Notes under the pieces: model-generated | Told to the model about the DNA's origin: nothing | The model's input: the letters and a program-made list of their open reading frames with translations, nothing else | The model's database searches: none | Part shown: piece after piece, positions 4,267 to 40,003 of the stretch | Position numbering within the stretch: position 1 is the first letter of the stretch | Layout: each line of letters opens with the position of its first letter | IMG/VR virus record: IMGVR_UViG_3300027017_000001 | DNA length: 44,171 bases | Strand: one strand, 5' to 3' | Source of the DNA: a virus | Made by a program: the position numbers and the translations under genes

Positions 4267-4268
4267 GC

Positions 4269-12346: not shown

Positions 12347-12357
12347 GGTGACTCTCC

Positions 12358-14591: not shown

Positions 14592-14592
14592 T

Positions 14593-15252: not shown

Positions 15253-15267
15253 AAAATCGGAGTATCT

Positions 15268-16209
15268 ATGCCAACGAATGACTTTTTGCCGTTCGGCTCT
15301 GCCGTGGGTGCTAATGTCTTGTCCCAGGCGGACTATGCAGAACTTACAGCAAGGTCAAATGGATTCTCCGCTGGTACGGCCGCATCAATCCAGCTAAATA
15401 AAGTATGGCGTCAGGCCTCAATCATGGCGGCAATGATCGGCCAGTTTATTGTCGATAATAATGGAACGGACGCAATCGACGATGGGACAATCACAACCTT
15501 GCTTAATAGCTTTAAGCAGGGGCTCAATAAGGCCGGCGTGACTGCTCCGCAGTTTGATAACACAACAAAACTTGCGACTACTGAGTTTGTTAGGAGCTCA
15601 CTTGGAAGCATGGCAGGCGTTAGGGTTTTAAGCGCTGGCGTCAGCCTAACTGCTGCAGATGTTGGGCATGTGGTAGTCGCAAATATTGCCTCTGGAGGGG
15701 TAATAAATCTGCCTGCCTTCTCAAGCCTTTATGCCGGAGCAAGATTCTACATCCAATGCGGCGCTAGCTCTGGGGCTATCACTGTAAATGCTCCAGCAGG
15801 AATGTCATTTGGCGCTCCAAATGCCAGCGGAAACCCGACATCTATAACTGTGCGCCCTGGCGTTGCTCAAGATTTCATTTATATTTCCAGCTCAACCATT
15901 TTGGTGACAAATGGCGCTGGTATTGCGCAGCTTGGAACAAGTGGGTACGAGCTATCCGCAAATGGAAAGATTTTGCAATGGGTTCGGGTTAGCTCGACAG
16001 GGGTAACGCCAAATGTATTTCAGACAATAACACTGCCGATCGCAGCTCCAAATGGTGTTCTATGTGCTTTTGGATCTAACTGCTCGGTTTCTCAATCTGA
16101 TACATTTTCCGTTAATGTCATAGAGAACACCAACAGCACGATCAGGATCTCTTGGTCTGCAACAAACGGTGGCGCTGCCGGCGCTAGGATTTTTATTGTT
16201 TGCAACTAA
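15268..16209 (+). CDS. Tail fibre protein
   Basis: 313-aa ORF. The N-terminus MPTNDFLPFGSAVGANVLSQADYAEL is typical of fibre proteins. G+C is lower than the flanks, and a Tfa-like gene follows. Confidence 0.8.
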   Translation: MPTNDFLPFGSAVGANVLSQADYAELTARSNGFSAGTAASIQLNKVWRQASIMAAMIGQFIVDNNGTDAIDDGTITTLLNSFKQGLNKAGVTAPQFDNTTKLATTEFVRSSLGSMAGVRVLSAGVSLTAADVGHVVVANIASGGVINLPAFSSLYAGARFYIQCGASSGAITVNAPAGMSFGAPNASGNPTSITVRPGVAQDFIYISSSTILVTNGAGIAQLGTSGYELSANGKILQWVRVSSTGVTPNVFQTITLPIAAPNGVLCAFGSNCSVSQSDTFSVNVIENTNSTIRISWSATNGGAAGARIFIVCN

Positions 16210-16220
16210 TTGGGTGAATC

Positions 16221-16643
16221 ATGTTTTATTCAGAAAGTACTGGCGGTTTTTATGACAATGAAATTCATGCTGGGAAAATTCCTGACGATGCAGTCTCTCT
16301 TAGCAAGGATGAATATGATGGCCTAATGTCGGGTCAGTGCTCGGGCCTGGAAATTTACTTCGACAAAGAATCTGGAAAGCCAGCGCTTCGGGTTCGGCCA
16401 GAGCCAACTCGAGAAGAACTGGTCGCCTCAGAGAAAATCTGGAGGGGAGACGCACTGCTGGAGACGGATAGCTTTGTGGCGCGACACCGGGATGAGGTAG
16501 AGGGTGGCGAGAAAACAACGCTTACTGATTCGCAGTACCAGGAACTTCAGCGATACCGCAAAAACCTGAGAAACTGGCCAGATATGCCTGAGTTTCCAGA
16601 TGTCGATCGCCGCCCAAAAGGACCTGTGTGGCTGACACAGTGA
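16221..16643 (+). CDS. Tail fibre assembly chaperone (Tfa/Caudo_TAP-like)
   Basis: 140-aa ORF. The N-terminus MFYSESTGGFYDNEIH is typical of tail fibre assembly proteins. Confidence 0.8.
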   Translation: MFYSESTGGFYDNEIHAGKIPDDAVSLSKDEYDGLMSGQCSGLEIYFDKESGKPALRVRPEPTREELVASEKIWRGDALLETDSFVARHRDEVEGGEKTTLTDSQYQELQRYRKNLRNWPDMPEFPDVDRRPKGPVWLTQ

Positions 16644-16706
16644 CCTTCGCGATGTGCTATCAAAGGTGGACGTAAAGCATTACCCTTGTCGCTCAATCGA
16701 AAAGGC

Positions 16707-17753
16707 ATGGGTTACATGGGTTCTACAGTGCATCACGCCACCTCTGATTCTTATATCTCAGCGCTCGACTCCCTTCGCGCTTACGCTGTAATTATTGTCG
16801 CGATAAGTCACTGGATACCAACAGGCTTCTCTTACAATATCGGGCATGCTGGCGTCAGTTTATTCTTTGTGTTAAGCGGTTTTGTTAATGGCTTGAGCTG
16901 GAGAAGGCCAGGTGGTGGCAATTACTTCAGCTTCATCTGGCGAAGGATTGCAAGAATATGGCCTGCATATTTTCTGGTGGTCTTTCTATCAGTGTTCTTT
17001 TTCTTTGATATGTATGAGGTATCTCCGATTTGGAATATTTTATTCCTTTCAGATGTTGCATCTATCATACATAGATCTCCGTTGTTTCCGGCTCACTTGT
17101 GGTCACTAGGCGTTGAACAGCAATTCTACTTTATTTTTCCTATTATCGCCGCAATAGCATGGAGGGTTAGATCAAAGTATATTGCGTTCATTGTATTGCT
17201 GTTGTGGATTTTTGTGAGGTTGCTGCTTGGATATTTTTCTGATGAAAATATTCAGTTGATAAGGTATTCAGTTGTAAGCTCAATTGATCTTTTTTTGGCT
17301 GGTTTGTTTGCATCGAGATTGCTTGCTGTTAGCGACAGATCATCTATGTTGTTTTCATATTTCGCCGGGGTTGTTGGCTTTTTGATTATTGCAAGCTGTT
17401 TTATGGGTTCTAGGTTTAGCGTGCTTTATGCTGCAAATACAGGTATTGCGCTGATAGGTATTTGTTTTATTTATTCTGCTGTTAATGGATCTAGAGCGCT
17501 TTCGTTGGTTACTGACTTTAAATGCCTTAAGTATCTCGGAAGGATTAGTTATGGGTTTTATCTTTATCATTTTCTAATTGGTATCGCGCTTTACCCTATG
17601 GTTCAAGATTATGGAATTTTGGCGTATTTTTTATGTTCCTTTGTGTTAACTTTAATTGCGTCCTCCATTAGTTTTCATTTTTTTGAGTCTCCTGCTAAAA
17701 ATTATCTTGTAAACGCTTATAAGCGCTCAACTAAGAGTGTCGAAACCTCATAA
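16707..17753 (+). CDS. Integral-membrane acyltransferase family 3 (O-antigen/polysaccharide O-acetylase-like) moron
   Basis: Multi-TM ORF with the N-terminal motif LDSLRAYAVIIVAISHW. Hand-counted lines give about 40% G+C against about 62% in the endolysin gene. An intrinsic terminator follows. ATG 16707 was chosen over the TTG at 16686. Confidence 0.8.
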   Translation: MGYMGSTVHHATSDSYISALDSLRAYAVIIVAISHWIPTGFSYNIGHAGVSLFFVLSGFVNGLSWRRPGGGNYFSFIWRRIARIWPAYFLVVFLSVFFFFDMYEVSPIWNILFLSDVASIIHRSPLFPAHLWSLGVEQQFYFIFPIIAAIAWRVRSKYIAFIVLLLWIFVRLLLGYFSDENIQLIRYSVVSSIDLFLAGLFASRLLAVSDRSSMLFSYFAGVVGFLIIASCFMGSRFSVLYAANTGIALIGICFIYSAVNGSRALSLVTDFKCLKYLGRISYGFYLYHFLIGIALYPMVQDYGILAYFLCSFVLTLIASSISFHFFESPAKNYLVNAYKRSTKSVETS

Positions 17754-17774
17754 GGATTTAATCAGTAGCTATCG

Positions 17775-17798
17775 GCCCGCCTCGAGCGGGCTTTTTTT
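17775..17798 (+). terminator. Rho-independent terminator after the acyltransferase
   Basis: The stem is GCCCGC-ctcga-GCGGGC, followed by T7. Confidence 0.7.
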
Positions 17799-17814
17799 CG
17801 CCTGGAGAAAAGTG

Positions 17815-18240
17815 ATGACGGTAAACGAGAAAGACCGCGACATCCTCGCGCGCACGCTGTGGGGCGAGGCCCGCGGGGAAGGGCTGGCCGGCCAGATTGC
17901 CGTGGCCTGGACCATCCGCAACCGCGTAAACGATGGCCGGACCAAGTCCTGGTGGGGAGAAGGCTATGCCGGAGTGTGCCAGGCGCCGTACCAGTTCAGC
18001 TGCTGGAACAAGAACGACCCGAACTACCCGTTCCTAAGCGGCGCCAAGCCGATCCCGTCCGGCCAGTTCGCCCAGGCCCAGCGTGCGACTGATCAGGTGA
18101 TCGCCGGTACCGTGCCCGATCCCACCGGCGGCGCCACGCACTACTACGCGACCACCATGCCCAAGGCCCCAGCCTGGGCTGCGAAGGCCAAGCAAACGGT
18201 GCGTATCGGGCAGCACGTATTCTTCAAGGACGTGCCGTAA
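17815..18240 (+). CDS. Endolysin, SleB-type cell wall hydrolase (Hydrolase_2-like)
   Basis: ATG 17815 follows GGAG. The motifs ARTLWGEARGE...YQFSCWN are typical of the SleB/CwlJ family. Spanin genes follow. Confidence 0.85.
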   Translation: MTVNEKDRDILARTLWGEARGEGLAGQIAVAWTIRNRVNDGRTKSWWGEGYAGVCQAPYQFSCWNKNDPNYPFLSGAKPIPSGQFAQAQRATDQVIAGTVPDPTGGATHYYATTMPKAPAWAAKAKQTVRIGQHVFFKDVP

Positions 18241-18611
18241 TGACTCCGGCGCAGAAGTTGCTCGGCACCCTGATGCTGGCTGCCCTGCTGATCGCCGCCG
18301 GTACCGGCCTGGGGGCCTGGCTCGCCGCGGGCCACTACCGACCATTGCTCGACGCTGCCCAGGACGATCTGGCTACAACCAAGGCTGGTCGCGACCACCT
18401 GGAAGAGCTGGCGGGCGAGCAGGGCAGGAAGCTCGGCGACCTGGTGCTGGCCGGTCGGGAGCGTGAGCAGCGCGCCGCCCAGGCCCAGGCCGACGCCCGG
18501 GAACTGTCACGGGTCGACAACGCTGAAGCGAACAGGCTGCTGCAGGAGCGAACCGGTGGCGACCAGTGTGTAGCTGCAACCTCGATCATCGACAAGGAGC
18601 TGGGCCTATGA
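18240..18611 (+). CDS. i-spanin (Rz-like)
   Basis: 123 aa with an N-terminal TM helix (LLGTLMLAALLIAAGTGLGAWLAAG) followed by a charged coiled-coil. Its start shares a TAATG overlap with the endolysin stop. Confidence 0.75.
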   Translation: MTPAQKLLGTLMLAALLIAAGTGLGAWLAAGHYRPLLDAAQDDLATTKAGRDHLEELAGEQGRKLGDLVLAGREREQRAAQAQADARELSRVDNAEANRLLQERTGGDQCVAATSIIDKELGL

Positions 18612-18751
18612 CCATTCTCTGGGCGGACCTGCCCGGCCACCAAGCAGGCGCAAAAACCGCTGAAAGCTGCATATCCTCTAGCCTTGGGCCCGGCCACCAG
18701 GGTGGGCCTGCTGGTCTGGTAGAAAAGTGCAGGACCTGGAAAAAAGGGCAG

Positions 18752-18997
18752 GTGCTGCTGCTCGGCCTGCTGCTGGCGGGGTGCGCTGGCCGAGAGCCGG
18801 AGGTGCGCACTGTGCGGGTGGAGGTGCCTGTGCAGGTGCCATGCCGCACGCAAGAGGTGGCGGTGCCACCCTGGGCGGCCTCCGACCTGAAGAAGTCCGA
18901 CGGTTTGGAGCTGAAGGTGCGGGCGCTGCTGGCCGAACGCCGGCAGCGGATCGGGTACGAACGGCAGTTGCTGGCTAGCGTATCGGCTTGCCATTGA
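18752..18997 (+). CDS. o-spanin (Rz1-like lipoprotein)
   Basis: Lipobox LLLAGC is followed by a Pro-rich mature part. Between ATG 18608 and the lipobox the only in-frame canonical start is GTG 18752, which is preceded by AAGGG. The start is uncertain. Confidence 0.6.
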   Translation: MLLLGLLLAGCAGREPEVRTVRVEVPVQVPCRTQEVAVPPWAASDLKKSDGLELKVRALLAERRQRIGYERQLLASVSACH

Positions 18998-19077
18998 TCG
19001 ATCGACATGGCCAGCGCGGCACCGCCTGGGGTGCCGATCTGGCCTGCAATGGATTGGACAGACCTTGTATGAAAATT

Positions 19078-19096
19078 AACCGTTTCGAACGGTTTT
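19078..19096 (+). terminator. Possible terminator at the end of the late operon
   Basis: Hairpin AACCGTT-tcg-AACGGTT with a short T-run. Weak. Confidence 0.35.
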
Positions 19097-19099
19097 CCC

Positions 19100-19365
19100 G
19101 CCTCTCTGCTTAAATTTTGCTAAAGCAAGAATTAAAGCGTCATCAAGCCACTGATTTATAAGGGTTTTTTTGTTCAGTGGTTCCGGTCCATCATCGGCGC
19201 CACAGAAAACCTCCTAAGTACCGGATTCAGGGGCTTAGCTAGGATTTCTGCTGTGTTCGTCTGCATTTACATAAATCTCATTTTCTATCGTTTTCCACCT
19301 TTTTTGCTTATTCTCCAGAATCCTTTGCTGAAATTCAGCAAGGCTCGAAGAGGATTCAGCAAAAA
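19100..19365. other. attP-containing region (core not identified)
   Basis: AT-rich non-coding stretch immediately upstream of int, with repeated GGATTCAG(C/G) motifs and a 7-bp inverted repeat TTGCTGA-aat-TCAGCAA. Confidence 0.45.
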
Positions 19366-20493
19366 ATGGGATCTATCACCGTTCGCAAGCGGAAGGACGG
19401 GTCTGTTGCGTACAACGCCCAGGTCCGGATCATGCAGAAGGGCGTGACAGTTTATCAGGAAAGCCAAACATTCGACCGCAAGACCACGGCCCAGGCCTGG
19501 ATCAAGCGCGTTGAAACGGAAATGGCGGAGCCTGGGGCAATCGCGAGGGCTTCCAGGAAGGGAGTGACGCTCAAGGAAATGATCGCTCGCTACCTCGATG
19601 AGTACGAAAAGCTCCGGCCGCTGGGCAAGACCAAGCGCGCAACGCTGAAGGCAATCGGCGATAGCTGGCTGGGACTGGTAGAAGATAAGGATCTAACCAG
19701 CCAGAAACTGGTCGAGTACGCCAATGAGCGAATGCTGAAAGCTGGTGTCCAGCCGCAGACTGTTGGTAACGATCTCGCCCACTTAGGGGCCGTTCTGTCC
19801 GTGGCCAGGCCTGCCTGGGGCTATGACATTGATCCGATGGCTATGCCAGATGCACGGAAGGTGCTGCGCAAGATGGGGGCGGTGTCTCGGAGCAACGAAC
19901 GCGACCGCCGACCGACCATGGAAGAGCTGGATACTCTGCTGAAGTATTACGAGCAGATGCGCGACAGGAGGAAGCAGGAAATCGATATGGTGCGCATGAT
20001 CGGCTTCGCGCTTTTTTCCACTCGCAGGCAGGAGGAAATTACCCGTATTCGCTGGGATAGCATGGATGAAGCCAAGCAGATGGTTCTGATCACGGACATG
20101 AAGAACCCCGGCCAGAAGTACGGCAACGACGTTTGGTGTCACCTGCCTGATGAGGCCTGGCGAATCATGATGTCGATGCCGCGGGTGGCCGATGAGGTTT
20201 TTCCTTACGTCGCAAAGTCGGTGTCTGCCTCGTTCACCAGGGCCTGTCTGTTCCTGGAAATTGAGGACCTGCATTTTCACGACCTTCGCCATGACGGCAT
20301 CAGTCGACTGTTTGAAATGGGGTGGGATATCCCGAAAGTGGCCTCTGTTTCCGGTCACCGGGATTGGAACTCGATGCGGCGCTATACGCACCTGAGGGGG
20401 AATGGCGATCCATATAAGGACTGGCCATGGTTGGAGAGGATAATATCGGGCCCCACGATCGAGGCCCAGAAGAGATCAGCAAACGCTTCGTAG
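19366..20493 (+). CDS. int: Tyrosine integrase
   Basis: 375 aa. The catalytic-box motifs HDLRH and RRYTHL are present. The N-terminus is arm-binding-like. Confidence 0.9.
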   Translation: MGSITVRKRKDGSVAYNAQVRIMQKGVTVYQESQTFDRKTTAQAWIKRVETEMAEPGAIARASRKGVTLKEMIARYLDEYEKLRPLGKTKRATLKAIGDSWLGLVEDKDLTSQKLVEYANERMLKAGVQPQTVGNDLAHLGAVLSVARPAWGYDIDPMAMPDARKVLRKMGAVSRSNERDRRPTMEELDTLLKYYEQMRDRRKQEIDMVRMIGFALFSTRRQEEITRIRWDSMDEAKQMVLITDMKNPGQKYGNDVWCHLPDEAWRIMMSMPRVADEVFPYVAKSVSASFTRACLFLEIEDLHFHDLRHDGISRLFEMGWDIPKVASVSGHRDWNSMRRYTHLRGNGDPYKDWPWLERIISGPTIEAQKRSANAS

Positions 20494-20757
20494 GCGTCTG
20501 CCCATCAGTTTTTCATGCTCAGTCTTCGCTTTCAGGTGCTGGGCGTCCAGGTAACTGGCGAGGTCGTTCAGGTGAACGCCTCGGGCTGACTTCTGGCTAC
20601 CTTCAATGCGGACCAGGGGCAGATCGATTTCGCCTGAAGCGACCTTGTTTTTCATCTTCTCAGGCGTCAGGTGGCTGAAGTAATCGGCGCACACTCGTTC
20701 CAGGGGAATGATGGCCATGCCGTTGTATTGGGCCATAAGCAAAAATGCGGTGTTCAT
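20476..20757 (-). CDS. PrtN-family DNA-binding protein (probable excisionase/recombination directionality factor)
   Basis: The sequence MNTAFLLMAQYNGMAIIPLERVCADYFSHLTPEK...VRIEGSQKSARGVHL matches my memory of the pyocin-activator PrtN family. The gene is convergent with and adjacent to int. Confidence 0.6.
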   Translation of the reverse strand: MNTAFLLMAQYNGMAIIPLERVCADYFSHLTPEKMKNKVASGEIDLPLVRIEGSQKSARGVHLNDLASYLDAQHLKAKTEHEKLMGRRLRSVC

Positions 20758-20914
20758 GTGAATACCTCGCCCGCCTGGCGGGCTTGTGAAAGTTGAGTGG
20801 GTGTTTCAGAAAGATCTGATGGTTGCCGGCGTTGCGCGCGGCTATGGTTTCAGCGTTCGCCCGGCCCGTTGTCCTGGCTATCCGTCGACTTTCCGGCGGG
20901 CTGTGGCGAACTCC

Positions 20915-21784
20915 TCAGTCACCACAGAAGCAGTCGATATCTTCGGCCAGGTAGTCGAAATCAAAGCCCGTCTGTTTGGCTCGTTGATCAGCTGACCAGG
21001 CCAGCGACCGGTAATTGGGGCGGTCCTGGCGGAACACCTGGCCGAACCGTTCCTCGGTGCCCGACCACCATATGACCCGAGACGGGTCTTCCTGGATGGT
21101 CTTGATTAGCTTGCCTTCGTTCTTCTTCCAGCACAGATCGCAATTTCCAAAGTCTGAGTCCATGCCCAGGTCGAACGGTTGCGTCTTCCAGAACTCGGCG
21201 ACGTCTTCCTTGGTGATGCCGGCAGTGTAGGAGGGGCATAGGTTGTACCAGCGGGTTCCGCCACGGTCGTTCGCCGCCATCATGCGGTGGTAGCGCTTCG
21301 GTTCGTCATAACGGATACCGACCACGCAATCCCATTCGGTGTAGCCCAGGGCGCGCATGTGCTTCTCGCCGATCTTCACCTTCAGGTATGCGGTGCACAT
21401 GTTGTTCGAGAAGTTCGGCAGCACCGGCAACAGGTTCTTTTCTGCCTTCCGATACGCAGCGTAATACTCAAGCATCATGGTGAACGGCTCACCGTTGCGG
21501 CTTGCCGTCTCGAAATCGACGATCTTGTACCAGGGCGCATCGTCCGGCTGTCCGTACACCCGGCACCACTCCATCCACACGATGCTGACGTTCCAGCGCT
21601 TGGCGATCTGATCGATGAAGACCAGCGTTTCCTCGCGCTCCTTGCCGGTATTCTGGAAGAACAGGTGCACATCGGGCGGCAGAGTCCCGCCGTGGGCTTC
21701 GAGGATCTTGTAGACCATGTGTCCACTGGTTCGACCACCGCTGATACCGATCTGGGCTGGTCCAGTGATCAAATATGGGCTCAT
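20915..21784 (-). CDS. PAPS reductase / PP-loop ATP pyrophosphatase family protein (CysH/DndC/SspD-like)
   Basis: 289 aa with the PP-loop GISGGRTSGHM near the N-terminus and the Cys motifs GNCDLCW and DCFCGD near the C-terminus. Confidence 0.8.
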   Translation of the reverse strand: MSPYLITGPAQIGISGGRTSGHMVYKILEAHGGTLPPDVHLFFQNTGKEREETLVFIDQIAKRWNVSIVWMEWCRVYGQPDDAPWYKIVDFETASRNGEPFTMMLEYYAAYRKAEKNLLPVLPNFSNNMCTAYLKVKIGEKHMRALGYTEWDCVVGIRYDEPKRYHRMMAANDRGGTRWYNLCPSYTAGITKEDVAEFWKTQPFDLGMDSDFGNCDLCWKKNEGKLIKTIQEDPSRVIWWSGTEERFGQVFRQDRPNYRSLAWSADQRAKQTGFDFDYLAEDIDCFCGD

Positions 21785-21845
21785 CGCTTCGGCCCTCGGT
21801 AGATGTGCTGGCCCAGGAACAGCAGGGCGGGGAGGGAGAGGAAGA

Positions 21846-22403
21846 TCATGGCGCCACCTGCTTGCTCATGGCTGCGTCGATGGCGGTATCCAGGTCTTCG
21901 CCATTCAGCACTACGTTGTTCGGCGTCTGGCCTGCGAACACTCCGCCGCAGAGTATGGTTTCAAGGTCGCGCTCGCGCAGCCACTGATACCGTTCAGCGT
22001 TTTTGCGCAGCGCATCAGCTACCGGCGCGGGCTGCTCGGCGTAGACGGGACGTATCTCGCGCATGATTCCGAAACGGTTAAATTTGCCAGCTTCATGCGA
22101 GTGCAGTGCGCGTTCCATTTCGCTGCACTGTGTCCATGCCGTCCAGTTAGAGCCCACCCTGTTTGTCTTTCTTCTGGTCTGCCACGCCACCGGCTCGCCC
22201 TGGCGTTGGGCGGCTTTCAGCGCGTCCAGCTCGGCTTTCAGGGCATCACGCTCAGCGAGCCAGCGCAGGGCAGCTTCTTGATTGTATGCGGCCTGTTTCT
22301 TCTGATCCTCAACCTCGGCCTGCAACCGGGTAACGTGTGTGTTACCTGCGTGGCACTCTAAGCAGGTATGGCCGAGGTATTGGCATAACGAGCAGGCAGT
22401 CAT
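21846..22403 (-). CDS. Hypothetical protein with N-terminal Cys/His motif and coiled-coil
   Basis: The start MTACSLCQYLGHTCLECH was chosen because it forms an ATGA overlap with the upstream stop. The product is 185 aa. Confidence 0.65.
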   Translation of the reverse strand: MTACSLCQYLGHTCLECHAGNTHVTRLQAEVEDQKKQAAYNQEAALRWLAERDALKAELDALKAAQRQGEPVAWQTRRKTNRVGSNWTAWTQCSEMERALHSHEAGKFNRFGIMREIRPVYAEQPAPVADALRKNAERYQWLRERDLETILCGGVFAGQTPNNVVLNGEDLDTAIDAAMSKQVAP

Positions 22404-22726
22404 GGCTTCGCTCCAATGCAGCCTGCCGGACATGCGCCGCAGCAGGTGGGCTTCGGGATGGGGTTGAGGGCTTCGGCGGTAGCCGTCACGATGTGGTAGG
22501 CCGCGTCATCCACCTTGACCAGGCCTTTGGCGTTCGCCTCGTACCAGGCCAGCAACAACCCTTCCAGCTCATCAACCCGCTGATCGGTCTTGGTCAGGCG
22601 CTGCTGTAGGGCCTCGCGCTCGGCAAGGACGCGGTCGAAGTCGGCGACGCCAACGTACTGCGCATCGTCGAATTCTGTCTCTACAACGTGCCGGTGATAT
22701 GCACGAAAACGCTTCACTTCATTCAT
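22400..22726 (-). CDS. Hypothetical coiled-coil protein
   Basis: The start MNEVKRF is preceded by GGGAGA. The product is 108 aa. The 5' extension in the track ORF was rejected. Confidence 0.65.
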   Translation of the reverse strand: MNEVKRFRAYHRHVVETEFDDAQYVGVADFDRVLAEREALQQRLTKTDQRVDELEGLLLAWYEANAKGLVKVDDAAYHIVTATAEALNPIPKPTCCGACPAGCIGAKP

Positions 22727-22895
22727 CACTGTTCTCCCGCGTGCGCAGCTCGGCCATGGCCGCCTGGCGCTGCTTGCTGCATTTGTCGTGGTTGCCATGG
22801 GCGCGCGAGTGGTTGCAGATGTCGCACATGACGTTGAGATCGAGCGGCTTCATGGGGCGCCCGCGGATTGTGGTCTTGCGGCGCAGGGCGGTCAT
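22719..22895 (-). CDS. Small Cys/His-rich hypothetical protein (58 aa, not in the ORF track)
   Basis: I translated it as MTALRRKTTIRGRPMKPLDLNVMCDICNHSRAHGNHDKCSKQRQAAMAELRTRENSDE. It has an ATGA overlap with the upstream gene, an 8-nt overlap with the downstream gene, and high GC3. Confidence 0.5.
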   Translation of the reverse strand: MTALRRKTTIRGRPMKPLDLNVMCDICNHSRAHGNHDKCSKQRQAAMAELRTRENSDE

Positions 22896-23209
22896 GGTGA
22901 AGACCGCAGCAGGTCGAGGACTTCCATGATGCCGGCGGCCACGCTGGAAGGCTGGGCCACGGCGTAGGTGGTGAGGTTGCGGATCAACTTTTCCACCTCC
23001 GACTGCTTGAGAATGTCGTCGCCGGCGGCGCGGGCCACGTCCAGGGCGTAGCGCTTGCCCTCCAGGAACATGACCCTGTTGATGGGGCCGGTGATCACGA
23101 TCTCCGGAAGCGGCGGGTTGGCCAGGACTGGCGGGATCAGCTTTGGCGCAGGCGCAGGGGCCCGGCCGGCAAACGCTTCTTCAAGCGCGCGGAATGTGAG
23201 CGGGTTCAT
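22892..23209 (-). CDS. Hypothetical protein
   Basis: 105-aa ORF in the early-left operon. Confidence 0.65.
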   Translation of the reverse strand: MNPLTFRALEEAFAGRAPAPAPKLIPPVLANPPLPEIVITGPINRVMFLEGKRYALDVARAAGDDILKQSEVEKLIRNLTTYAVAQPSSVAAGIMEVLDLLRSSP

Positions 23210-23223
23210 TGGGCACCTCGGGA

Positions 23224-23436
23224 TCAGTCGTTGCGGGTCACGCCCGCCAGGTCGCCGTCGCGTAGGACAGCCGTCTCTTTCAGTTCCAGCAGGATGGCCG
23301 CGGCGTGCTCGCGGTTGAGGGCGTAGAGGTACACGCTGAACGTGCCCTCTACGGTGGTGAAGTCGACGGGGAACAGGCGCCAGGTCCGGCCCTGCTCAAC
23401 AACTACTGCGGCAAGGGTCACGGCCTGGCGGTCCAT
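23224..23436 (-). CDS. Hypothetical protein
   Basis: 70-aa ORF in the early-left operon. Confidence 0.6.
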   Translation of the reverse strand: MDRQAVTLAAVVVEQGRTWRLFPVDFTTVEGTFSVYLYALNREHAAAILLELKETAVLRDGDLAGVTRND

Positions 23437-23445
23437 TCAAGTCAC

Positions 23446-24273
23446 CTACTTCCCGACGCCGATAAATGGGGTCGCACTTCCGCTGGTCATATAAACCGGC
23501 AGTTTGCCGTCCCACTTTTCGATAGCGTTTAGCTCGACGACACCAGGGTTATTGCGCAGGGCCTGGCCACGGATGTTCAGCGACTCCGCCTCGCCTTGGG
23601 CGCGCAGCACGGCCGCGTCCTTCAAGCCCTTGGCTTCCTCGCGGGCCTTGTCTGCCTCGGCGATCACCTGGGCCACTTCGTTCTGGCGCTGCGCCGTCTT
23701 CTGGGTGGCCTCGATCTTCAGGTTTAGCGCAGCCACGACCTTTTCCGGCAACCCGATCTCACCGTTCAGATAAAGGCTCTCGACGATGATCCCCTTGCTG
23801 TCGAAGTGGTCACGCACCCGGGCTTCCACGTCCTTCAGGAACCGCTCCTTGTTCGGGCCGTAGATCTCCTCGGCTGTCAGCTTCGATGCGGTGTTGTTGA
23901 AGGCCGTGCGGATCACCTGCGGGACGTTGACCTGGACAATCTCGTCCATCGACTTGCGGTAGGTTTGGAACAGCAGGGGGGCAGCACCAGGCTTGGCGCG
24001 CAGGGTCATGCCGATGGGGGTGCTGATCTTCATGCCGTCCTTGTCCTGGAACGTGACGGTGCCGATGTTGATGTTCTGGTTGAACGTCGGGAACAGGAAC
24101 AGTTCTTCGTTCCAGGTCAGCCACTTGTAGCCGACACTGGTCTCGGTTGGAGCCACTCCTTTCTCGCTGCCCATGAGATTCACGATCACGCCCGTGTAAC
24201 CGGCGGGCACCTTGGAACAGCCGGCCGTGATGGCGAGCAGGCACAGCATTGCGACAGCGGCGATGCGCTTCAT
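23446..24273 (-). CDS. SPFH/Band-7 (HflC/prohibitin-like) lipoprotein
   Basis: The N-terminus MKRIAAVAMLCLLAITAGC gives a signal peptide plus lipobox. An SPFH-like core and a C-terminal Ala/Glu/Lys coiled-coil follow. The RBS is AGAGGA. The start forms an ATGA overlap with the upstream gene. Confidence 0.8.
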   Translation of the reverse strand: MKRIAAVAMLCLLAITAGCSKVPAGYTGVIVNLMGSEKGVAPTETSVGYKWLTWNEELFLFPTFNQNINIGTVTFQDKDGMKISTPIGMTLRAKPGAAPLLFQTYRKSMDEIVQVNVPQVIRTAFNNTASKLTAEEIYGPNKERFLKDVEARVRDHFDSKGIIVESLYLNGEIGLPEKVVAALNLKIEATQKTAQRQNEVAQVIAEADKAREEAKGLKDAAVLRAQGEAESLNIRGQALRNNPGVVELNAIEKWDGKLPVYMTSGSATPFIGVGK

Positions 24274-24518
24274 AGTTTTTCCTCTTTGGTGTTTGCCGCT
24301 GAGCTGCGGCGCTTGTTGAGCAGGTGGGTGACAAGGCAGATCGAGCCGATTAGCCAGAACGCGATCAGCGAAAACCCGAGAACTACCACCATGGTGGAGT
24401 CAGTGCTGATCATTGCCGGAGCAATCCCCCGCAGAATGACGATCGTCAGGGCCAGGTAGAGCAGTGCTGTCAGCAGTCGCAGAAACAGCCGGCCTGGCTT
24501 AATCAATGCTTCGGTCAT
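24270..24518 (-). CDS. Small 2-3 TM membrane protein coupled to the SPFH gene
   Basis: 82 aa, almost entirely hydrophobic helices (LLTALLYLALTIVIL.., VVVLGFSLIAFWLIGSICLV). Its start abuts the upstream stop. Confidence 0.7.
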   Translation of the reverse strand: MTEALIKPGRLFLRLLTALLYLALTIVILRGIAPAMISTDSTMVVVLGFSLIAFWLIGSICLVTHLLNKRRSSAANTKEEKL

Positions 24519-24749
24519 TCAAGCCACCTGCGCTGGCGGGTTCATGGCGAAGTAGATGCGGGCGCAGGCTTCGGTGTCCGGTCGCGCGCGGTGGCCGCCT
24601 ACCAGTTCATGCTCGGCGCCAGCAGTGATGTTCAGGTAGCGTTTGCCGGTGTCCGGATCGCGGGTGATGCCGGAGAAGAAACCGCCGCCGTAGGGCTGGC
24701 CGATTTCCGGGATGGTCACTGCTGGTGCTGCTTGGGCTGCTGCGGACAT
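24519..24749 (-). CDS. Small protein with DUF1566-paralog N-terminal motif
   Basis: The start MSAAAQ is preceded by GAGGAAAG. The motif IPEIGQPYGGGFFSG parallels WPGQGGI(N/Y)GG in the two larger paralogs. Confidence 0.6.
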   Translation of the reverse strand: MSAAAQAAPAVTIPEIGQPYGGGFFSGITRDPDTGKRYLNITAGAEHELVGGHRARPDTEACARIYFAMNPPAQVA

Positions 24750-24827
24750 GGTCTTTCCTCTTTTCGAAGGCAACAAAAAAGGCGCTGCTGCGCCCTGGTG
24801 CCGGATCAAGAACGAATGAATGAAGGA

Positions 24828-25421
24828 TTAAATGAAATATCTGCGGACTGGGCGGACGCGGAGCTCGACGCCCTTGCCGCCGTAGCCCTGATCGCCACCA
24901 CCGAAGAGCATGAAGAACGCGGTGTCGGCGGAGCGCTGCGTGGACGACCAGTAGGCACCCTTGGTGATCAGGTCATTCGCCCAGGCCTGATACAACTGAG
25001 CAGCCGCCGGCAGGTCGAAGTCAGCATGACCGTCGGCGGTGTACTCCCGGCAAGCTTCGGCAGCTGGATGGCCACCGGCGGCGATCAGTGCGTCGGTGTT
25101 AGCTTTGCCGTCCCACTTGCTTGTCGCCTCTGACTCCTTCTTGTAGCCACCCCACTTGTGCTCGCCGATATCGGAGTCACCGAAGATCAGGTAGTGGGCA
25201 GGCACATCGCCGCGCGCGGCCACGAAACCGCCGTTGATGCCGCCCTGGCCAGGCCAGTATGCGCCCAGGGCTGGGATGTCATTTGGTGCGGCAGGTTGAA
25301 CATTCGCCGCTGGCGGCAGCACCTGGGCGAAGACACTGGCTATGGCGAGCTTCGCCAGGGAAGAGGCCGGCATCTTGATCGATGCATCGCCGTGCTTCAG
25401 GGTGATCATTTCAGGTTTCAT
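24828..25421 (-). CDS. DUF1566 (Lcl C-terminal-like) domain protein, paralog A
   Basis: The start MKPEMITL follows GAGG. Motifs WPGQGGINGG, DFDLPAAAQL and the C-terminal VRPVRR are present, and it resembles 30699..31178. Confidence 0.7.
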   Translation of the reverse strand: MKPEMITLKHGDASIKMPASSLAKLAIASVFAQVLPPAANVQPAAPNDIPALGAYWPGQGGINGGFVAARGDVPAHYLIFGDSDIGEHKWGGYKKESEATSKWDGKANTDALIAAGGHPAAEACREYTADGHADFDLPAAAQLYQAWANDLITKGAYWSSTQRSADTAFFMLFGGGDQGYGGKGVELRVRPVRRYFI

Positions 25422-25479
25422 GCGATTACCTCGGGTAGGCGCCGCCATCAGGGGCCGGATGCGCAGCGTTGGGTAGGGG

Positions 25480-26586: not shown

Positions 26587-27084
26587 TCAGAAGGGGATGT
26601 CATCGTTGAAGCTGTCGTCGAAGTTCTGAGCCTGTTGCGGCGCCTGCTGCTGGCTCTGCTGTGAAGCGTTCGGCCGAGGGCGCGACTGCTGTGGTCGCTG
26701 ACCGGTTGGGCGCTGGTCGTTGGTGCCTTGCTGGCGGTGCGCGGGGCTGCCGAGCAGCTGCATGGTGCCGTGCATGTCCACGATGATTTCCGTGGTGTAG
26801 CGCTTGATGCCATCTTTCTCCCACTCGCGGGTCTGCAGTTTGCCCTCGATGTACACCTGGGCACCTTTGACCAGATACTCGCCGGCGATCTCGGCGACTT
26901 TTCCGAACAGCGTGACGCGGTGCCATTCGGTCTTTTCAGCCTTCTGGCCGGTCTGCTTGTCGATCCATTGCTCGCTGGTGGCCAGGCTCAGGTTCGTGAC
27001 CGCGTTACCGTTTGGCAGATACCGAACATCCGGATCCTGGCCGCAGGTGCCGACCAGGATGACTTTGTTTACTCCGCGGGCCAT
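26587..27084 (-). CDS. ssb: Single-stranded DNA-binding protein
   Basis: The OB-fold N-terminus [22 protein letters not shown], a Gln/Pro-rich linker and the C-terminal DDIPF tip are all present. Confidence 0.95.
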
Positions 27085-27092: not shown

Positions 27093-27764
27093 CTATTTCG
27101 AAAGCGCTTTGCGCAGGAATGGGTCCAGGTCGGACTGGTTCAACAGCCAGCGCTTGTAGTCGCTAGGAAGGTCAGAGATGGCCGTGCCTTTGTGCTTGCC
27201 GAAGCTGATCACAGTGGGGATTCGAGCATCTTCCGAGATCTGCCAGAGCTCCTCCCAGTCGTTGACCGGCCGACCCAACCTTGCTGCCAAATCGTCGAGG
27301 ATCTTCACGAGCAGGAGGCGACAGTTCTTCACGTCATCAAGTGCGGCATGGGCATTCCGCAGCAAGGCCGTGGCCTCGTTGCGGTAGTGCAAGTAAATCA
27401 TTGCCGACTGCGTGTGGCTGTCGGCATCAGGCCAAAGCCTTCCGCTCAGCGCCCTGGTGCAAATCCGTTTAACGTTCGGCTGGCCAATGACGCGCCAGTC
27501 GTAGTCGATGTTGTGGCCAATCAGATACTCAGTATCGACCGGCAGCTTGAAGGAGGTGTGGGGCGCGAACCCCTCCAATTCCTCATCGAGGATGTGGCTC
27601 GTTGCCAAGGCGCTCAGCTCAATCGGCTTTCCGGGCTTGTAACGCTGCAAGAACGAGTCGGTTACCGCGATACTGCTGGTGCTGCTCAACTTCAGCCATG
27701 CAGCTTCTACCAGGTGTGGATCATTCAGGCCGGTGGTTTCACTGTCGAAGATGTATGCGGTCAT
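27093..27764 (-). CDS. DEDDh 3'-5' exonuclease (ExoX-like) with C-terminal DUF3820-like tail
   Basis: It has the N-terminal FDSETTGL Exo I motif, an HNIDYD-type Exo II motif and a C-terminal [18 protein letters not shown]. Confidence 0.8.
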
Positions 27765-28351
27765 GCTGCTTGCTCCTGCGCGGAAAGCTCGGTCTTCCTT
27801 TTATTTTTTGCCCTGGTGAAGCTGTCAGCCATGCTCTTATTTCCCGCGGCCTTTGCCGCCGAAATCCCTGCGTCGAACGCAGTTTTCAAGTCAGCAATGG
27901 ATTTGGCCTTGGAAATGTCTGCAATCAGAGCCGTCCAGTCGTACTGCTGGGGGATCTTTTCTTTTTCTGGCGGCTTGGCCCCCGTAATTGGATCAAGCGC
28001 GTCGTGCTCGACGATCTCGAGAGCCGTGACATACAGATACCTGCGTTGGTATGTCTCAACCGCGCCGATGTTCTGAACTTCATGGCACCCCTTCAGTGCT
28101 GCGCTACCCATCGGGCTTGTGAAATCAACGCTGGTGCCATCCTCGATGTCGACCACTTTCAAGGTGGCAAGCTCGGCGGTAAACGACACGAGCCCACAAA
28201 GACCCTTTTCCAGGAACAGGTCATTGATCACGGGGAGAAAGTCGCTGAGTTCGAAGTAGTTGTAACCTGCGAATTTGTTCTCTCCGGACTTGCTGAGAGA
28301 CATTCGCTGCATCTCACAGCGAGCCTCCTGGAGTTTCTTGTAAACGCTCAT
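27761..28351 (-). CDS. erf: Erf-family single-strand annealing protein
   Basis: The start MSVYKKLQEARCEM and the motif KFAGYNYFELSDFLP are typical of ERF. The 5' extension in the track ORF was rejected. Confidence 0.8.
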   Translation of the reverse strand: MSVYKKLQEARCEMQRMSLSKSGENKFAGYNYFELSDFLPVINDLFLEKGLCGLVSFTAELATLKVVDIEDGTSVDFTSPMGSAALKGCHEVQNIGAVETYQRRYLYVTALEIVEHDALDPITGAKPPEKEKIPQQYDWTALIADISKAKSIADLKTAFDAGISAAKAAGNKSMADSFTRAKNKRKTELSAQEQAA

Positions 28352-28358
28352 GGCGACC

Positions 28359-28505
28359 TCAATTCGGTTGGTTGTCCCACTGCTGCTGAATGCGGCGGGC
28401 TTCTTCTTCGTACTCTTTGCGCTGCTCACCGTTGAATCGGTCGGGCGTGAAAGCACCGACTTGCATCCAGTCGAGCTGGGCGGCCAGTCGTGGAGATATG
28501 TTCAT
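28359..28505 (-). CDS. Small hypothetical protein (48 aa)
   Basis: The start MNISPRL lies 5 nt after the upstream micro-ORF stop. Confidence 0.45.
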   Translation of the reverse strand: MNISPRLAAQLDWMQVGAFTPDRFNGEQRKEYEEEARRIQQQWDNQPN

Positions 28506-30106: not shown

Positions 30107-30143
30107 GAGAAAGACGAAAGCCCCGTTGGACGTCGGGGCTTTC
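30107..30143 (-). terminator. Intrinsic terminator inside the early-left operon (tL-like)
   Basis: A 10-bp stem GAAAGCCCCG/CGGGGCTTTC with an 8-nt loop. On the minus strand it is followed by GTCTTTCTC. Confidence 0.5.
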
Positions 30144-30174
30144 GGTGTAGCTCTACAGTGCAGTGATCTCAGAG

Positions 30175-30698: not shown

Positions 30699-31178
30699 TT
30701 ACTGAAGGAATCTGCGGACAGGGCGCACCACGCGCTCGCTGTCCTTGCCGTGGCTGACGAGCCAGCCATCTTCAAAGCCCATGTAGTAGGCGTCGTCGGC
30801 TGAGTACTGCGTGGACGACAGGTAGTACCACTCTTCGCTGAACGACTCTGGAGCGTACTGCCAGCCATGATGCAGCTCGCCGATGGAGGGGAGGTAGAAG
30901 TCCTTGTGCCCGTCGGCGTTGTAGCCGCTGGCAGCAATAGCAGCAGGATGCTTGCCTTCGCGGTCGATCAGTACTGCAGTGTTGGCGCGGCCATCTGTGC
31001 GACTCACCGCCTCAACCGAAACCCCGTAATCGCCGTAGGCGTGGCGGCCGACATCCTCGGCGGCAAAGATGATGTGGCAAAGACCTTCAGGGTACTGGCG
31101 AAGGCCGCCGTAGATACCGCCTTGTCCTGGCCAAACTTCGCCGATGGCCGGCGGGGTGAGCTGCTGTTGTGCGTTCAT
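30699..31178 (-). CDS. DUF1566 (Lcl C-terminal-like) domain protein, paralog B
   Basis: 159 aa with the motifs WPGQGGIYGG, DFYLPSIGEL and VRPVRR. Confidence 0.7.
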   Translation of the reverse strand: MNAQQQLTPPAIGEVWPGQGGIYGGLRQYPEGLCHIIFAAEDVGRHAYGDYGVSVEAVSRTDGRANTAVLIDREGKHPAAIAASGYNADGHKDFYLPSIGELHHGWQYAPESFSEEWYYLSSTQYSADDAYYMGFEDGWLVSHGKDSERVVRPVRRFLQ

Positions 31179-32184: not shown

Positions 32185-32213
32185 AAAGTATGCGTATACG
32201 AATAGCTCGTCAA
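32185..32213 (-). promoter_or_regulatory. PL-like early-left promoter
   Basis: On the minus strand it reads TTGACG, a 17-nt spacer and TACTTT. The spacer is filled by the operator palindrome. Confidence 0.55.
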
Positions 32214-32307: not shown

Positions 32308-32976
32308 TTACCGGCGCCTTAGCCAGGAACCGGTTACCACGCCGCAGATCTTTGTGCCCTCGGGCATTTCCAGAATGCGATTAGGGAAATCTGGGTTGAG
32401 CGCGAGCAGAAATGTGCCTTCTTCCGTGATCTGCAATCGCTTAAAAGTCGTCTTCTTGTCGGGATCTGGCGTCCTGACGACGATATCGCTGTTGTGCCGC
32501 GCTTCTATTTCTGGGTCAACGAGAATGATTTCACCATCCCTATACTCCGGCCACATGCTTAATCCGTTTATTTGAAGACAGAAGGAGCTGGCACTGTGTG
32601 CATAAGGGCACTGGAGCCATTCCTCGGCGTCGTTTGTTATTAGTAGATCAATAGAGTCATCGAGCATCCCGGCGGTTACCCATGAAATCAGAGGAACTGG
32701 GTCATATAGTCCATGCCCAGCGCTGATATTGGAATCCTTACCTTTTATGCGGTCAATTAGACCTCCGTCCAGCAAATCTTGCGCGTCCAACTTAAAAGCC
32801 TTGGCGAGACTCGACACGGTCGAAATCCCTGGATCTGACTCCTCTCGCAGCGTCCGGCCAATAGTCGGCTGACCAACCCCAGATTTAGACGCAAGCTTCT
32901 GCTGCGTGTCCAGGTTCGGATTGCCAGCCATCAAGAATTTTAAGTTGTTGGCCAATATCTGCCTGATCGAAAGCAT
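32308..32976 (-). CDS. cI: CI-like repressor (HTH_XRE + S24 LexA-type autopeptidase)
   Basis: The start is MLSIRQIL. The HTH is QQKLASKSGVGQPTIGRTL. An Ala-Gly candidate cleavage site lies in NISAGHG, the Ser motif is GLSMWPE and the Lys motif is TFKRL. Confidence 0.9.
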   Translation of the reverse strand: MLSIRQILANNLKFLMAGNPNLDTQQKLASKSGVGQPTIGRTLREESDPGISTVSSLAKAFKLDAQDLLDGGLIDRIKGKDSNISAGHGLYDPVPLISWVTAGMLDDSIDLLITNDAEEWLQCPYAHSASSFCLQINGLSMWPEYRDGEIILVDPEIEARHNSDIVVRTPDPDKKTTFKRLQITEEGTFLLALNPDFPNRILEMPEGTKICGVVTGSWLRRR

Positions 32977-32990
32977 CGTCGTAGCACCTG

Positions 32991-33080
32991 ATTCGTATCT
33001 GGCTAAGCATCGCATTAAGCATTAGTCGTTTGCGGCTTTACAGGATTATTCGTATACGGCTAAAGTATGCGTGAACGACT
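32991..33080. promoter_or_regulatory. OR-like operator cluster (three motif copies)
   Basis: The copies are ATTCGTATCTGGCTA (32991-33005), ATTCGTATACGGCTA (33048-33062) and a TATGCGTGAACGA-containing copy (33064-33080). Confidence 0.6.
33037..33066 (+). promoter_or_regulatory. PR-like early-right promoter
   Basis: It reads TTTACA, an 18-nt spacer and TAAAGT. The spacer contains an operator copy. Confidence 0.5.
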
Positions 33081-39202: not shown

Positions 39203-39241
39203 ACGACAAAACCCGGCCGCCGCGCCGGGTTTTGTCGTTTT
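39203..39241 (+). terminator. Rho-independent terminator 2 of the late leader
   Basis: A perfect 15-bp stem ACGACAAAACCCGGC/GCCGGGTTTTGTCGT with a 6-nt loop, followed by TTT. Its core is near-identical to terminator 1. Confidence 0.65.
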
Positions 39242-39357
39242 CAGCTCCGCCACACCCATTGCTCCGAGCTGGGAGTGCCGTCGGGGCTGACCTATTCGCC
39301 GCTGCTCCCCAGCGTTTGGCTGAATACCCCGGCCCTTTTTATTCCACGGAGAAACCA

Positions 39358-39952: not shown

Positions 39953-40003
39953 GGCGCGACACTTTTCGAGAATCAGCAAATTGTGTCGCGACACGGAGGG
40001 GGA

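Follow-up and report, generated by a model that had tools for sequence, protein, structure and literature searches.

A mobile gene pair for an SPFH-domain lipoprotein and a small membrane hairpin in the putative leftward early operon of a lambdoid Pseudomonas phage

The viral record IMGVR_UViG_3300027017_000001 of IMG/VR, whose full 44,171 nucleotides are called the window in the following, belongs to a lambdoid temperate Pseudomonas phage. On its minus strand it carries two overlapping genes, one for a lipoprotein of 275 amino acids (aa) with an SPFH/Band-7 domain and one, directly upstream, for a membrane protein of 82 aa, which is named the hairpin here. Sequence comparison with other phages indicates that these two genes form a self-contained, horizontally mobile cassette (23446-24518 of the window). 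PHROG 200 and PHROG 1130, to which the two proteins can be assigned, are already catalogued without a function, and the window holds an ordinary member of a widespread phage module. The pair is thus real, common and experimentally tractable, and its existence is not surprising. New with respect to the literature found are the obligate hairpin partner, the exact boundaries of the cassette, the unequal selection on its two genes, and the nature of the 76-aa open reading frame (ORF) in front of them as the stump of a target gene of a diversity-generating retroelement (DGR).

Three minus-strand ORFs follow each other in this region without intergenic space, as an initial annotation made from the letters alone had described. 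The stop codon of the 76-aa ORF directly abuts the start codon of the hairpin gene, and the TGA stop of the hairpin gene overlaps the ATG of the SPFH gene in an ATGA at 24273-24270; each of the two latter genes has a Shine-Dalgarno sequence of its own (Table 1). The same 4-bp overlap of a hairpin ORF with an SPFH ORF is seen in further phage lineages, with SPFH proteins that share 36-100% identity with that of the window, and therefore it is not due to chance. The initial annotation had described all three ORFs together, which has to be corrected in that the unit consists of the hairpin and SPFH genes without the 76-aa ORF. Looking up a near-identical SPFH protein led to an unrelated prophage (L059; Logan SRR23365127_60, 12240-25067), which is integrated next to mutS and carries the same cassette at 5756-6828. 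Window and L059 share in this region only 24521-23447, with 92% nucleotide identity, and the ends of this span are the TGA directly ahead of the hairpin ATG and the stop codon of the SPFH gene. With other phages that encode SPFH proteins of 66-97% identity, the nucleotide similarity ends exactly at the SPFH stop codon and part-way into the hairpin gene. The SPFH genes of window and L059 differ by 49 synonymous and one non-synonymous codon changes, those for the hairpin by 15 synonymous and 14 non-synonymous changes, with the loop GIAPAMISTDST of the hairpin unchanged. Both genes can be taken to be functional, with the SPFH scaffold under very strong purifying selection.

The assignment of the 275-aa protein to the SPFH/Band-7 family, which the initial annotation had recognised by eye, was borne out by a hidden Markov model (HMM) search. 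Pfam Band_7 (PF01145) matches with E=1.8e-19 and 70.9 bits against a cut-off of 23.6, with residues 21-205 covering positions 2-167 of the 176 of the profile, and PHROG 200 ("lipoprotein") matches at E=2e-74. The protein begins with MKRIAAVAMLCLLAITAGC, followed by SKV. Residues 1-19 comprise the signal peptide and lipobox that had also been noted before, and they fit the pattern of the PROSITE PS51257 type, with Cys19 and two K/R within the first seven residues. A core (~19-170), a single helix of 65 residues (177-241) and a conserved C-terminal segment (242-275, KWDGKLP...PF) follow; the helix consists to 60% of A/E/K/Q/R, in agreement with the Ala/Glu/Lys coiled-coil end proposed earlier. 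An AlphaFold2 (AF2) model of the monomer with a pLDDT of 75.9 has strands and helices at 19-169 and then the helix 177-241, and the C-terminal segment is modelled with low confidence, yet it is strongly conserved and contains an invariant motif. Searched against the PDB with Foldseek, the model gave full-length matches to subunits of SPFH cages, all with probability 1.00, namely prohibitin (the best, 8rrh, E=3.9e-14), erlin, HflK/C, stomatin, QmcA-YbbJ and flotillin. Prohibitin is also the best PDB match by sequence (E=4.4e-5), and some close relatives are named "prohibitin family protein" by NCBI. The labels "serine protease" and "transposase" on some homologues are unsupported by Pfam, PHROG and fold, and are taken as annotation carry-over. 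NCBIfam gave nothing useful for the SPFH, hairpin and 76-aa proteins or for a 206-aa protein encoded nearby (Table 1).

Among 42 close homologues, 35 have the lipobox pattern and the other seven an uncleaved N-terminal transmembrane (TM) anchor instead, from which an extracytoplasmic, periplasm-facing orientation of the SPFH protein can be deduced. The version of the Gram-positive Kayvirus is likewise anchored by an N-terminal TM helix. This exchange of lipid and TM anchors, together with an Asp at position +2 after the Cys, a Lol-avoidance signal, in the versions from the E. coli phages P88 and a P1-like phage, suggests a location in the inner membrane. Lipoprotein sorting rules in Pseudomonas differ from those in E. 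coli, and in the window protein S-K-V follows Cys19. Processing as a lipoprotein and the localisation are predictions from such motifs. Cage assembly is likewise presumed, and the extreme purifying selection and the invariant C-terminal motif are indirect hints to it.

The hairpin protein, which had been described as little more than hydrophobic helices, indeed has hydrophobic segments at 9-39 and at 40-68, which are followed by a basic C-tail, and the short conserved loop joins the two TM helices. Its termini are predicted to be cytoplasmic and the loop periplasmic. It matches PHROG 11742 (E=2.4e-19) and PHROG 1130 (E=2.1e-6), the latter of which is named "membrane protein" and filed under "moron, auxiliary metabolic gene and host takeover"; among 20 members of the family, 14 match PHROG 1130 and four PHROG 11742. 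In the family alignment, TM1 is followed by a short loop, for which the consensus is (A/V)P-x-(L/M)-(I/L/V)-S-(S/A/T)-x-(S/D/N), then by a TM2 that begins with V-x-x-G-F, and by a basic tail; the members are 55-98 aa long, and the end of the protein is reached 14-18 residues past TM2. No Pfam family exists for the hairpin, and scattered single matches of the 20 members (SxtJ, SecE and others) were judged as noise from hydrophobic sequence. A word-indexed search found three relatives of the 82-aa protein and an exhaustive phmmer search 20 cluster representatives. The hairpin seems to diverge too fast for single-sequence searches, so that family membership is based on synteny and alignment, and the alignment has no stretch conserved enough to seed a scan for loci.

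A survey of how often the two genes occur together, which the initial annotation had proposed, confirmed the pairing. It covered 48 IMG/VR loci found with the SPFH protein, plus reference phages. Directly upstream of the SPFH gene lies an ORF of 55-98 aa with two TM helices, usually with the 4-bp overlap. Of 26 SPFH clusters (90% identity), 21 have a hairpin-family ORF in the same orientation no more than 700 nt ahead of the SPFH gene, mostly overlapping it by 4 bp, a count for which the HMM was built from the same loci, so that strong scores are partly circular and the alignment is the real evidence. With two hairpin proteins as queries, a downstream SPFH gene was found in all 69 loci, which is the weaker of the two tests as these loci are fairly close relatives of the queries. 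Lineages with the pair include the P2-like phage P88, the P1-like phage MH422554 and the virulent Vequintavirinae phage SSE121, in which a 54-aa ORF lies between the two genes. The hairpin ORF is missing from the deposited annotation of a Pseudomonas podophage (2334-2546, plus strand, in locus L001, PQ287648.1) and of the P1-like phage (2769-3005, plus strand, in locus L003, MH422554.1), and phiEa104 has an unannotated hairpin-family ORF with a weaker match upstream of its SPFH gene. In HHBS55_2, a minus-strand hypothetical coding sequence is annotated over the DNA of a hairpin-family ORF. A different small membrane protein occupies the hairpin position in Kayvirus (MbpV, one TM helix) and in the phiCbK-like phage Karma (three TM helices). 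It is the P1-like phage and not P1 that carries the cassette, in the same dmt-ban interval; the idea that plp/upl of P1 are this pair was dropped, as plp in NC_005856 encodes 125 aa on the other strand and is not an SPFH gene. SPFH homologues are present in 704 of 50,697 phage records (~1.4%), with hosts that range from Staphylococcus to Caulobacter, and most of these records belong to strictly lytic groups, e.g., Kayvirus, Vequintavirinae, Felix-O1-like, phiCbK-like and PAK_P1-like phages. The earlier view that the genes belong to no standard phage module is therefore wrong, since the pair is widespread and the SPFH protein has its PHROG. Neither protein matches a defence profile of PADLOC.

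The 76-aa ORF in front of the cassette is the 5' stump of a gene of the DUF1566/Lcl_C type. It carries IGQPYGGGF, and the related GQGGIxGG is found in the neighbouring DUF1566/Lcl_C-type genes, which confirms the motif that the initial annotation had seen in common. With the intact 215-aa homologue of phage SC_8_H2H8_2017 as tblastn query, residues 1-60 match window 24776-24597 with 77% identity (E=1e-20), and beyond residue 60 this search gave no match in the window. At the nucleotide level, the SC_8 phage shares 24598-25842 of the window with 76% identity, and the match stops at 24598. About 50 codons at the start of the stump are homologous to the intact gene, and the last ~26 are read-through of 76 nt of junction DNA up to the TGA. 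An intact paralogue, the 206-aa gene, lies just upstream, and its 3' end shares 70% identity, along 116 nt, with that of the 159-aa DUF1566-type gene (30710-30825). The SC_8 phage contains a DGR that is missing from its annotation (L004, MT121966.1 8073-16972), with a reverse transcriptase (RT), an Avd-like ORF with four helices and a template repeat (TR). The coordinates of this DGR within L004 are 1748-2908 (minus), 3121-3477 (minus), 2848-2951, 3548-3651 and 4245-4345; the TR at 2848-2951 lies beside the RT and Avd-like ORF, and 3548-3651 is a variable repeat (VR) with 90% identity. The 215-aa gene and its neighbour, both of the DUF1566/Lcl_C type, each end in a variable repeat that matches the template, at 90% and 84%, respectively. 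An ORF that overlaps the template region is rich in Asn. The window contains neither an RT nor an Avd match, and the 76-aa ORF does not itself qualify as DGR target, as it retains only residues 1-60 of the intact homologue. Since the stump is truncated and the window is without RT and Avd matches, the DGR and the 3' two-thirds of one of its targets appear to have been replaced in this phage, and the SPFH cassette is now in their place. The two intact DUF1566/Lcl_C-type genes (24828-25448 and 30699-31178) and the stump region (24519-24776) look like orphaned former DGR targets.

Table 1. Position of the cassette, its signals and further features of the window.
Feature	Position	Strand	Remarks
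76-aa ORF	24749-24519	-	TGA stop (24521-24519) abuts ATG of 82-aa ORF
82-aa hairpin partner gene	24518-24270	-	ATG 24518-24516; PHROG 11742 and PHROG 1130
275-aa SPFH/Band_7 lipoprotein gene	24273-23446	-	Pfam PF01145, PHROG 200, AF2/Foldseek, lipobox pattern
Putative Shine-Dalgarno AGGTGG of hairpin gene	24524-24529	-	5 nt ahead of ATG; read from sequence
Putative Shine-Dalgarno GAGGA of SPFH gene	24280-24284	-	Inside last hairpin codons (K-E-E); read from sequence
Junction DNA, 76 nt	24522-24597	-	Between end of DUF1566 homology and start of cassette homology
Intact DUF1566/Lcl_C-type gene (206 aa), paralogue of stump	24828-25448	-	PHROG 4245, E=2.1e-28; Lcl_C, E=5.4e-4, below cut-off
DUF1566-type gene (159 aa)	30699-31178	-	Upstream part of early operon
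cI-like repressor gene	32308-33015	-	PHROG 4, transcriptional repressor, E=9.5e-39; S24/UmuD-like C-terminus
Candidate OL, operator-like repeat left of cI	32185-32201	.	Direct repeat D2, 88% identical; inverted repeat I6
Candidate OR, partner repeat of candidate OL	33062-33078	.	Direct repeat D2, 88% identical; inverted repeat I6
Erf	27761-28456	-	
Exonuclease	27093-27764	-	
SSB	26587-27084	-	
PAPS-reductase-like gene	20915-21784	-	Downstream of cassette
Integrase gene	19366-20493	+	Converges on leftward early operon
Terminator-like hairpin, strong	30115-30144	-	11-bp stem with 8 G-C pairs; inside leftward early operon
Terminator-like hairpin with T-run	24779-24796	-	Consensus scan; between intact DUF1566 gene and stump, upstream of cassette
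Endolysin gene	17737-18240	+	Lysis gene away from cassette
Rz-like gene	18566-18997 (within 18240-18997)	+	Lysis gene away from cassette
Holin-like gene	39232-39681	+	Only holin-like gene; ~21 kb from endolysin and Rz-like genes, near terminase gene

An SPFH protein that differs from that of the window at one residue is recorded from Pseudomonas chlororaphis. A megablast search of phage genomes gave no close relative of the region or of 24 kb of the window, with only patchy matches of 74-85%. The gene for the cI-like repressor marks the start of the leftward early operon, and the cassette lies ~8 kb downstream. The order on the minus strand is the repressor gene, small ORFs with a DUF1566-type gene, Erf, exonuclease and SSB, then again small ORFs with a DUF1566-type gene, the three abutting ORFs, small ORFs and a PAPS-reductase-like gene. 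This order and the operator-like repeats that flank cI agree with the placement in a leftward (PL) early operon by the initial annotation, so that this term is a fair description for the region of the cassette. A position equivalent to that of cIII in phage lambda had been assumed as well. At the level of the operon this is correct, and in L059 the cassette is near the operon start, but in the window it is distal to the recombination genes, a region which we take to resemble the accessory region between exo and xis of lambda rather than the cIII position.

Some further features of the window concern its overall layout. The lysis genes appear split, with the holin-like gene apart from the endolysin and Rz-like genes. 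An O-antigen acetyltransferase-like gene (16686-17753, plus strand) just ahead of the endolysin gene, at the end of the tail region, is likely a lysogenic-conversion moron. The gene for the large terminase (41143-42738) forms the right end, and presumed head and tail ORFs on the plus strand from ~90 onwards the left end; the map looks circularly permuted rather than like a prophage with ends. A 214-aa protein (39983-40627, plus strand) matches PHROG 513 "transposase" at E=5e-97, a label that is doubtful; the gene sits upstream of a PHROG 546 gene of unknown function, followed by the large terminase gene. The segment 39983-40627 has counterparts of 74-85% identity in a number of Pseudomonas phages, the annotations of which vary between transposase, toxin and DUF2280.

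The positions of the cassette in different temperate phages give an idea of when it is expressed. L059 has the cassette as second and third gene after cI, with a gene for a GerE-type regulator in between, and a 43-nt inverted repeat flanks cI (4403-4445 and 5238-5280, candidate OR/OL). The arm downstream of cI contains TTGACA-17 nt-CACTAT and is plausible as OL/PL. P88 has the pair co-directional between cox and a replication gene, among early genes, and the cassette of the P1-like phage lies in the dmt-ban interval, where a promoter of P1 is annotated with C1-controlled operators. A crude scan that was not tuned to Pseudomonas found no sigma-70-like promoter site near the cassette, neither in the window nor in L059. 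Judged by position or annotation, the cassette would be under repressor control in all four temperate contexts, i.e., the window, L059, P88 and the P1-like phage, and it would therefore be made after infection or induction but be silent in the resting lysogen. A defence function in the prophage state is thus unlikely. No PADLOC match and no promoter-like site of its own was found that would speak for it, or for the abortive infection that the initial annotation had named as an alternative.

How the genes are built, which families and fold their products belong to, that the pair is conserved, that the cassette moves and that purifying selection acts on it can be regarded as shown. The evidence favours an SPFH cage that is made early and faces the periplasm, with the hairpin as its dedicated, co-translated client; during infection this cage would act on the cytoplasmic membrane, and there on a component that very different bacteria have in common. 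We propose that the cassette belongs to the transcript of the repressor-controlled leftward early operon, a placement read from position and operator-like repeats, and that it is made on infection or induction. The hairpin would be an inner-membrane protein whose translation is coupled to that of the SPFH gene via the ATGA. The SPFH protein would be lipid-anchored and periplasm-facing with the full layout of a cage-former, i.e., membrane anchor, core, long wall helix and conserved C-terminal cap. It could then self-assemble into a dome like that of prohibitin or HflKC on the periplasmic face of the inner membrane. Such a dome might enclose a membrane patch holding the co-made hairpin and thereby create a phage-made microdomain in the infected cell; the enclosure of the hairpin is presumed from the pairing of the genes. 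The likeliest specific use of this microdomain would be to restrain or redirect the membrane AAA protease FtsH, i.e., membrane proteostasis, and in a temperate phage proteins like CII could be stabilised as well, which would then be secondary to a function that lytic phages have too. FtsH is the leading candidate, because HflK/C and prohibitin, the cellular SPFH cages of outward-facing topology, both cage proteases of the FtsH family, and because small hydrophobic peptides such as lambda CIII, SpoVM and MgtR are classic modulators of FtsH. The architecture and the action as an early membrane module are probable. FtsH-type proteostasis as the target, which is reached by analogy, is a possibility that we regard as rather doubtful. 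The proposal as a whole, an early SPFH cage with a hairpin client that remodels the inner membrane with FtsH as the likeliest use, has to be considered tentative, and that it falls short in at least one of its steps is somewhat easier to assume than that it is correct throughout.

Several points weigh against this proposal. Nothing ties the SPFH protein specifically to FtsH. It is only 14-19% identical to HflK/C and prohibitin, the HflK equivalog TIGR01933 is matched with 21.4 bits (E=1.4e-4) against a cut-off of 159.4, and there is a single SPFH gene instead of a pair of the HflK/HflC type, with the hairpin gene and unrelated small ORFs as neighbours. With a pTM of 0.51, the AF2 model is only moderately reliable, and it covers a monomer. 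The residue at +2 after the Cys is Ser, Gly or Glu in many homologues, and a sorting to the outer membrane, which is conceivable, would part the lipoprotein from the hairpin in the inner membrane. At least two terminator-like hairpins (30144-30115 and 24796-24779) separate the candidate PL from the cassette, although the count of such sites in the region is not above that in shuffled sequence; expression would then need an antitermination step, and no N- or Q-like factor was identified. The partial circularity of the pair count has been mentioned above, and the role of the gene has been called unclear in the literature (PMC8540360, PMC13239085).

Other functions of the pair have to be considered as well. 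The early cage and the hairpin could alter the periplasmic face of the infected or induced cell and thereby block the DNA of a second phage, comparable to superinfection exclusion by T4 Imm/Sp and HK97 gp15. The envelope location facing the periplasm, the early-operon placement and the presence in both virulent and temperate carriers would fit exclusion. The distribution is accessory, cassette-like and patchy (nucleotide comparisons; PMC8540360), and the locus of the P1-like phage is the variable dmt-ban interval, where P1 has the membrane-stress and colicin-resistance genes tciABC. However, exclusion proteins usually evolve fast and are specific for host or phage, whereas the SPFH protein is under extreme purifying selection (49:1) in a family that spans hosts from Staphylococcus to Caulobacter; moreover, no similarity to known exclusion proteins in PHROGs and no PADLOC match was found, which leaves exclusion as an unlikely but serious alternative. 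Quite unlikely is an influence on membrane stability or the timing of lysis, by which the SPFH cage would sequester or buffer a holin-like or otherwise membrane-active hairpin, or buffer a true holin, or would reinforce the energised membrane, e.g., against depolarising abortive-infection effectors. The hairpin does have the generic layout of a class II holin with two TM helices and a basic C-tail, translational coupling would co-produce both proteins, and in Kayvirus mbpS and its small TM neighbour mbpV adjoin lysK, with MbpV noted as holin-like (PMC7150955). But compatible topology is all that the class II holin assignment has in its favour, as the hairpin matches no holin in PHROG or Pfam, the lysis genes of the window are located elsewhere (Table 1), and the pairs of P88, the P1-like phage, SSE121 and Karma lie among early or nucleotide-metabolism genes and not among lysis genes.

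Functions specific for lysogeny or for the prophage are less likely than exclusion or membrane stabilisation. A dedicated modulator that raises lysogenisation by shielding proteins like CII or CIII from FtsH was the favoured idea of the initial annotation and had been raised before, as a proposal in genome papers (PMC4936722, PMC10269572) and in PMC8540360. It would agree with the common operon with other early-left genes, with the L059 cassette close after cI and the candidate OL/PL, near where lambda keeps N and cIII, and with HflK/C among the structural matches. Nevertheless, most of the 704 carrier records are strictly lytic phages, which have no decision to bias, a point also made in PMC8540360, and therefore the connection of HflK/C to lysogeny cannot be a general explanation. 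Considering also that the HflK equivalog score is far under its cut-off and that no CII- or CIII-like partner was identified in this analysis, a dedicated lysogeny modulator is very unlikely. Most improbable of all is a moron that is expressed from the prophage for the benefit of the host, whose product, the triacylated lipoprotein, would serve fitness or virulence after its display or its release in vesicles. The model for it is PM0222 of Pasteurella multocida, an HflK/C-like protein of a prophage island that is secreted with outer membrane vesicles and needed for virulence (PMC9872710), a likeness taken from its description. The category of PHROG 1130 would suit a moron, but the cassette has no promoter or terminator around it, its operons are repressor-controlled by position or annotation, and strictly lytic phages frequently carry it.

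A bolder version of the preferred reading, an early cage on the inner membrane with the hairpin as client, would be that the pair is a universal organelle-like phage device, in which a self-assembling periplasmic cage, used by phages of many lifestyles and hosts, walls off a patch of the inner membrane early in infection and captures FtsH or another universally conserved machine. Such a device is unlikely; if it were true, the pair would represent a new class of host-takeover modules, with the conserved hairpin loop as the specificity element. In any case, carriers of the SPFH gene include candidates for phage therapy, i.e., Kayvirus, PAK_P1-like phages and Bruynoghevirus, and in such phages the gene has been interpreted as an indication of a temperate lifestyle (PMC8540360). 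The cassette nature, the orientation and the early placement argue against the gene as a marker of lysogeny. A two-gene cassette with a dedicated partner, the periplasm-facing orientation and the repressor-controlled placement in temperate phages are the first concrete handles on the family. A minimal construct of 1.07 kb with two ORFs would give access to the effects of a virus-made prohibitin/HflKC-like cage on a bacterial membrane. What SPFH cages do is still an open question across all domains of life, and a compact, lipid-anchored and predictedly homo-oligomeric phage SPFH protein with a client of 60-80 aa could be a useful model.

Compared with known systems, the pair differs from all defence systems covered by PADLOC-DB v2, as no family was matched at E<=0.1 by the SPFH, hairpin, 76-aa and 206-aa proteins. 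T4 Imm/Sp and RexA/RexB of lambda are analogous as small accessory envelope proteins, but there is no similarity in sequence or family, and RexAB is expressed together with cI in the lysogen, whereas the window cassette lies downstream of the candidate OL/PL. With regard to cellular cages, prohibitin PHB1/PHB2 (8rrh, 9o9z, 9unl) is the best structural match of the phage SPFH protein (E=3.9e-14, TM-score ~0.57). Its orientation is towards the intermembrane space, which corresponds topologically to the periplasm, and its partner is the m-AAA protease of the FtsH family, but prohibitin is eukaryotic, heteromeric and TM-anchored and only 16-18% identical. HflK/HflC with FtsH (7vhq, 7wi3, 9cz2; E ~1e-12 to 1e-10) have the same domain order and form a periplasm-facing cage in the inner membrane, as predicted for the phage protein; however, HflK/C is a hetero-oligomer of two TM-anchored paralogues, whereas the phage has one gene with a lipobox. 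The SPFH-NfeD operons, i.e., QmcA-YbbJ of E. coli (8z5g), YuaF-FloT of B. subtilis and PH1510-PH1511 of Pyrococcus, follow the same plan of two genes for a scaffold and a small membrane partner. In QmcA-YbbJ the partner sits with the cage, and QmcA is a full-length structural match (E=1.6e-9), but it faces the cytoplasm, and the phage protein is predicted to be lipid-anchored and to face the periplasm. The initial annotation had pointed to the NfeD-type partners of SPFH genes, but the phage partner is not of this type. It is adjacent and coupled as well, but it has no NfeD/OB-fold, only a two-TM hairpin of PHROG 1130/11742, and Pfam gave no NfeD match for the 82-aa protein even at E<=1 or for the 20 family members at E<=0.01. 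Since the partner is without an NfeD domain, the pair can be regarded as an operon of SPFH gene plus partner in its organisation, but not as an SPFH-NfeD operon. Direct homologues are the PHROG 200/1130 pairs of other phages, such as gp12/gp11 of P88, gp209/gp211 of SSE121 and MbpS/MbpV of Kayvirus, although in Kayvirus and the phiCbK-like phages the partner of the SPFH protein is another small TM protein. In P88 the two genes overlap in an ATGA just as in the window, and the pair of the window is of the same kind as these phage pairs, so that it is one more member of them.

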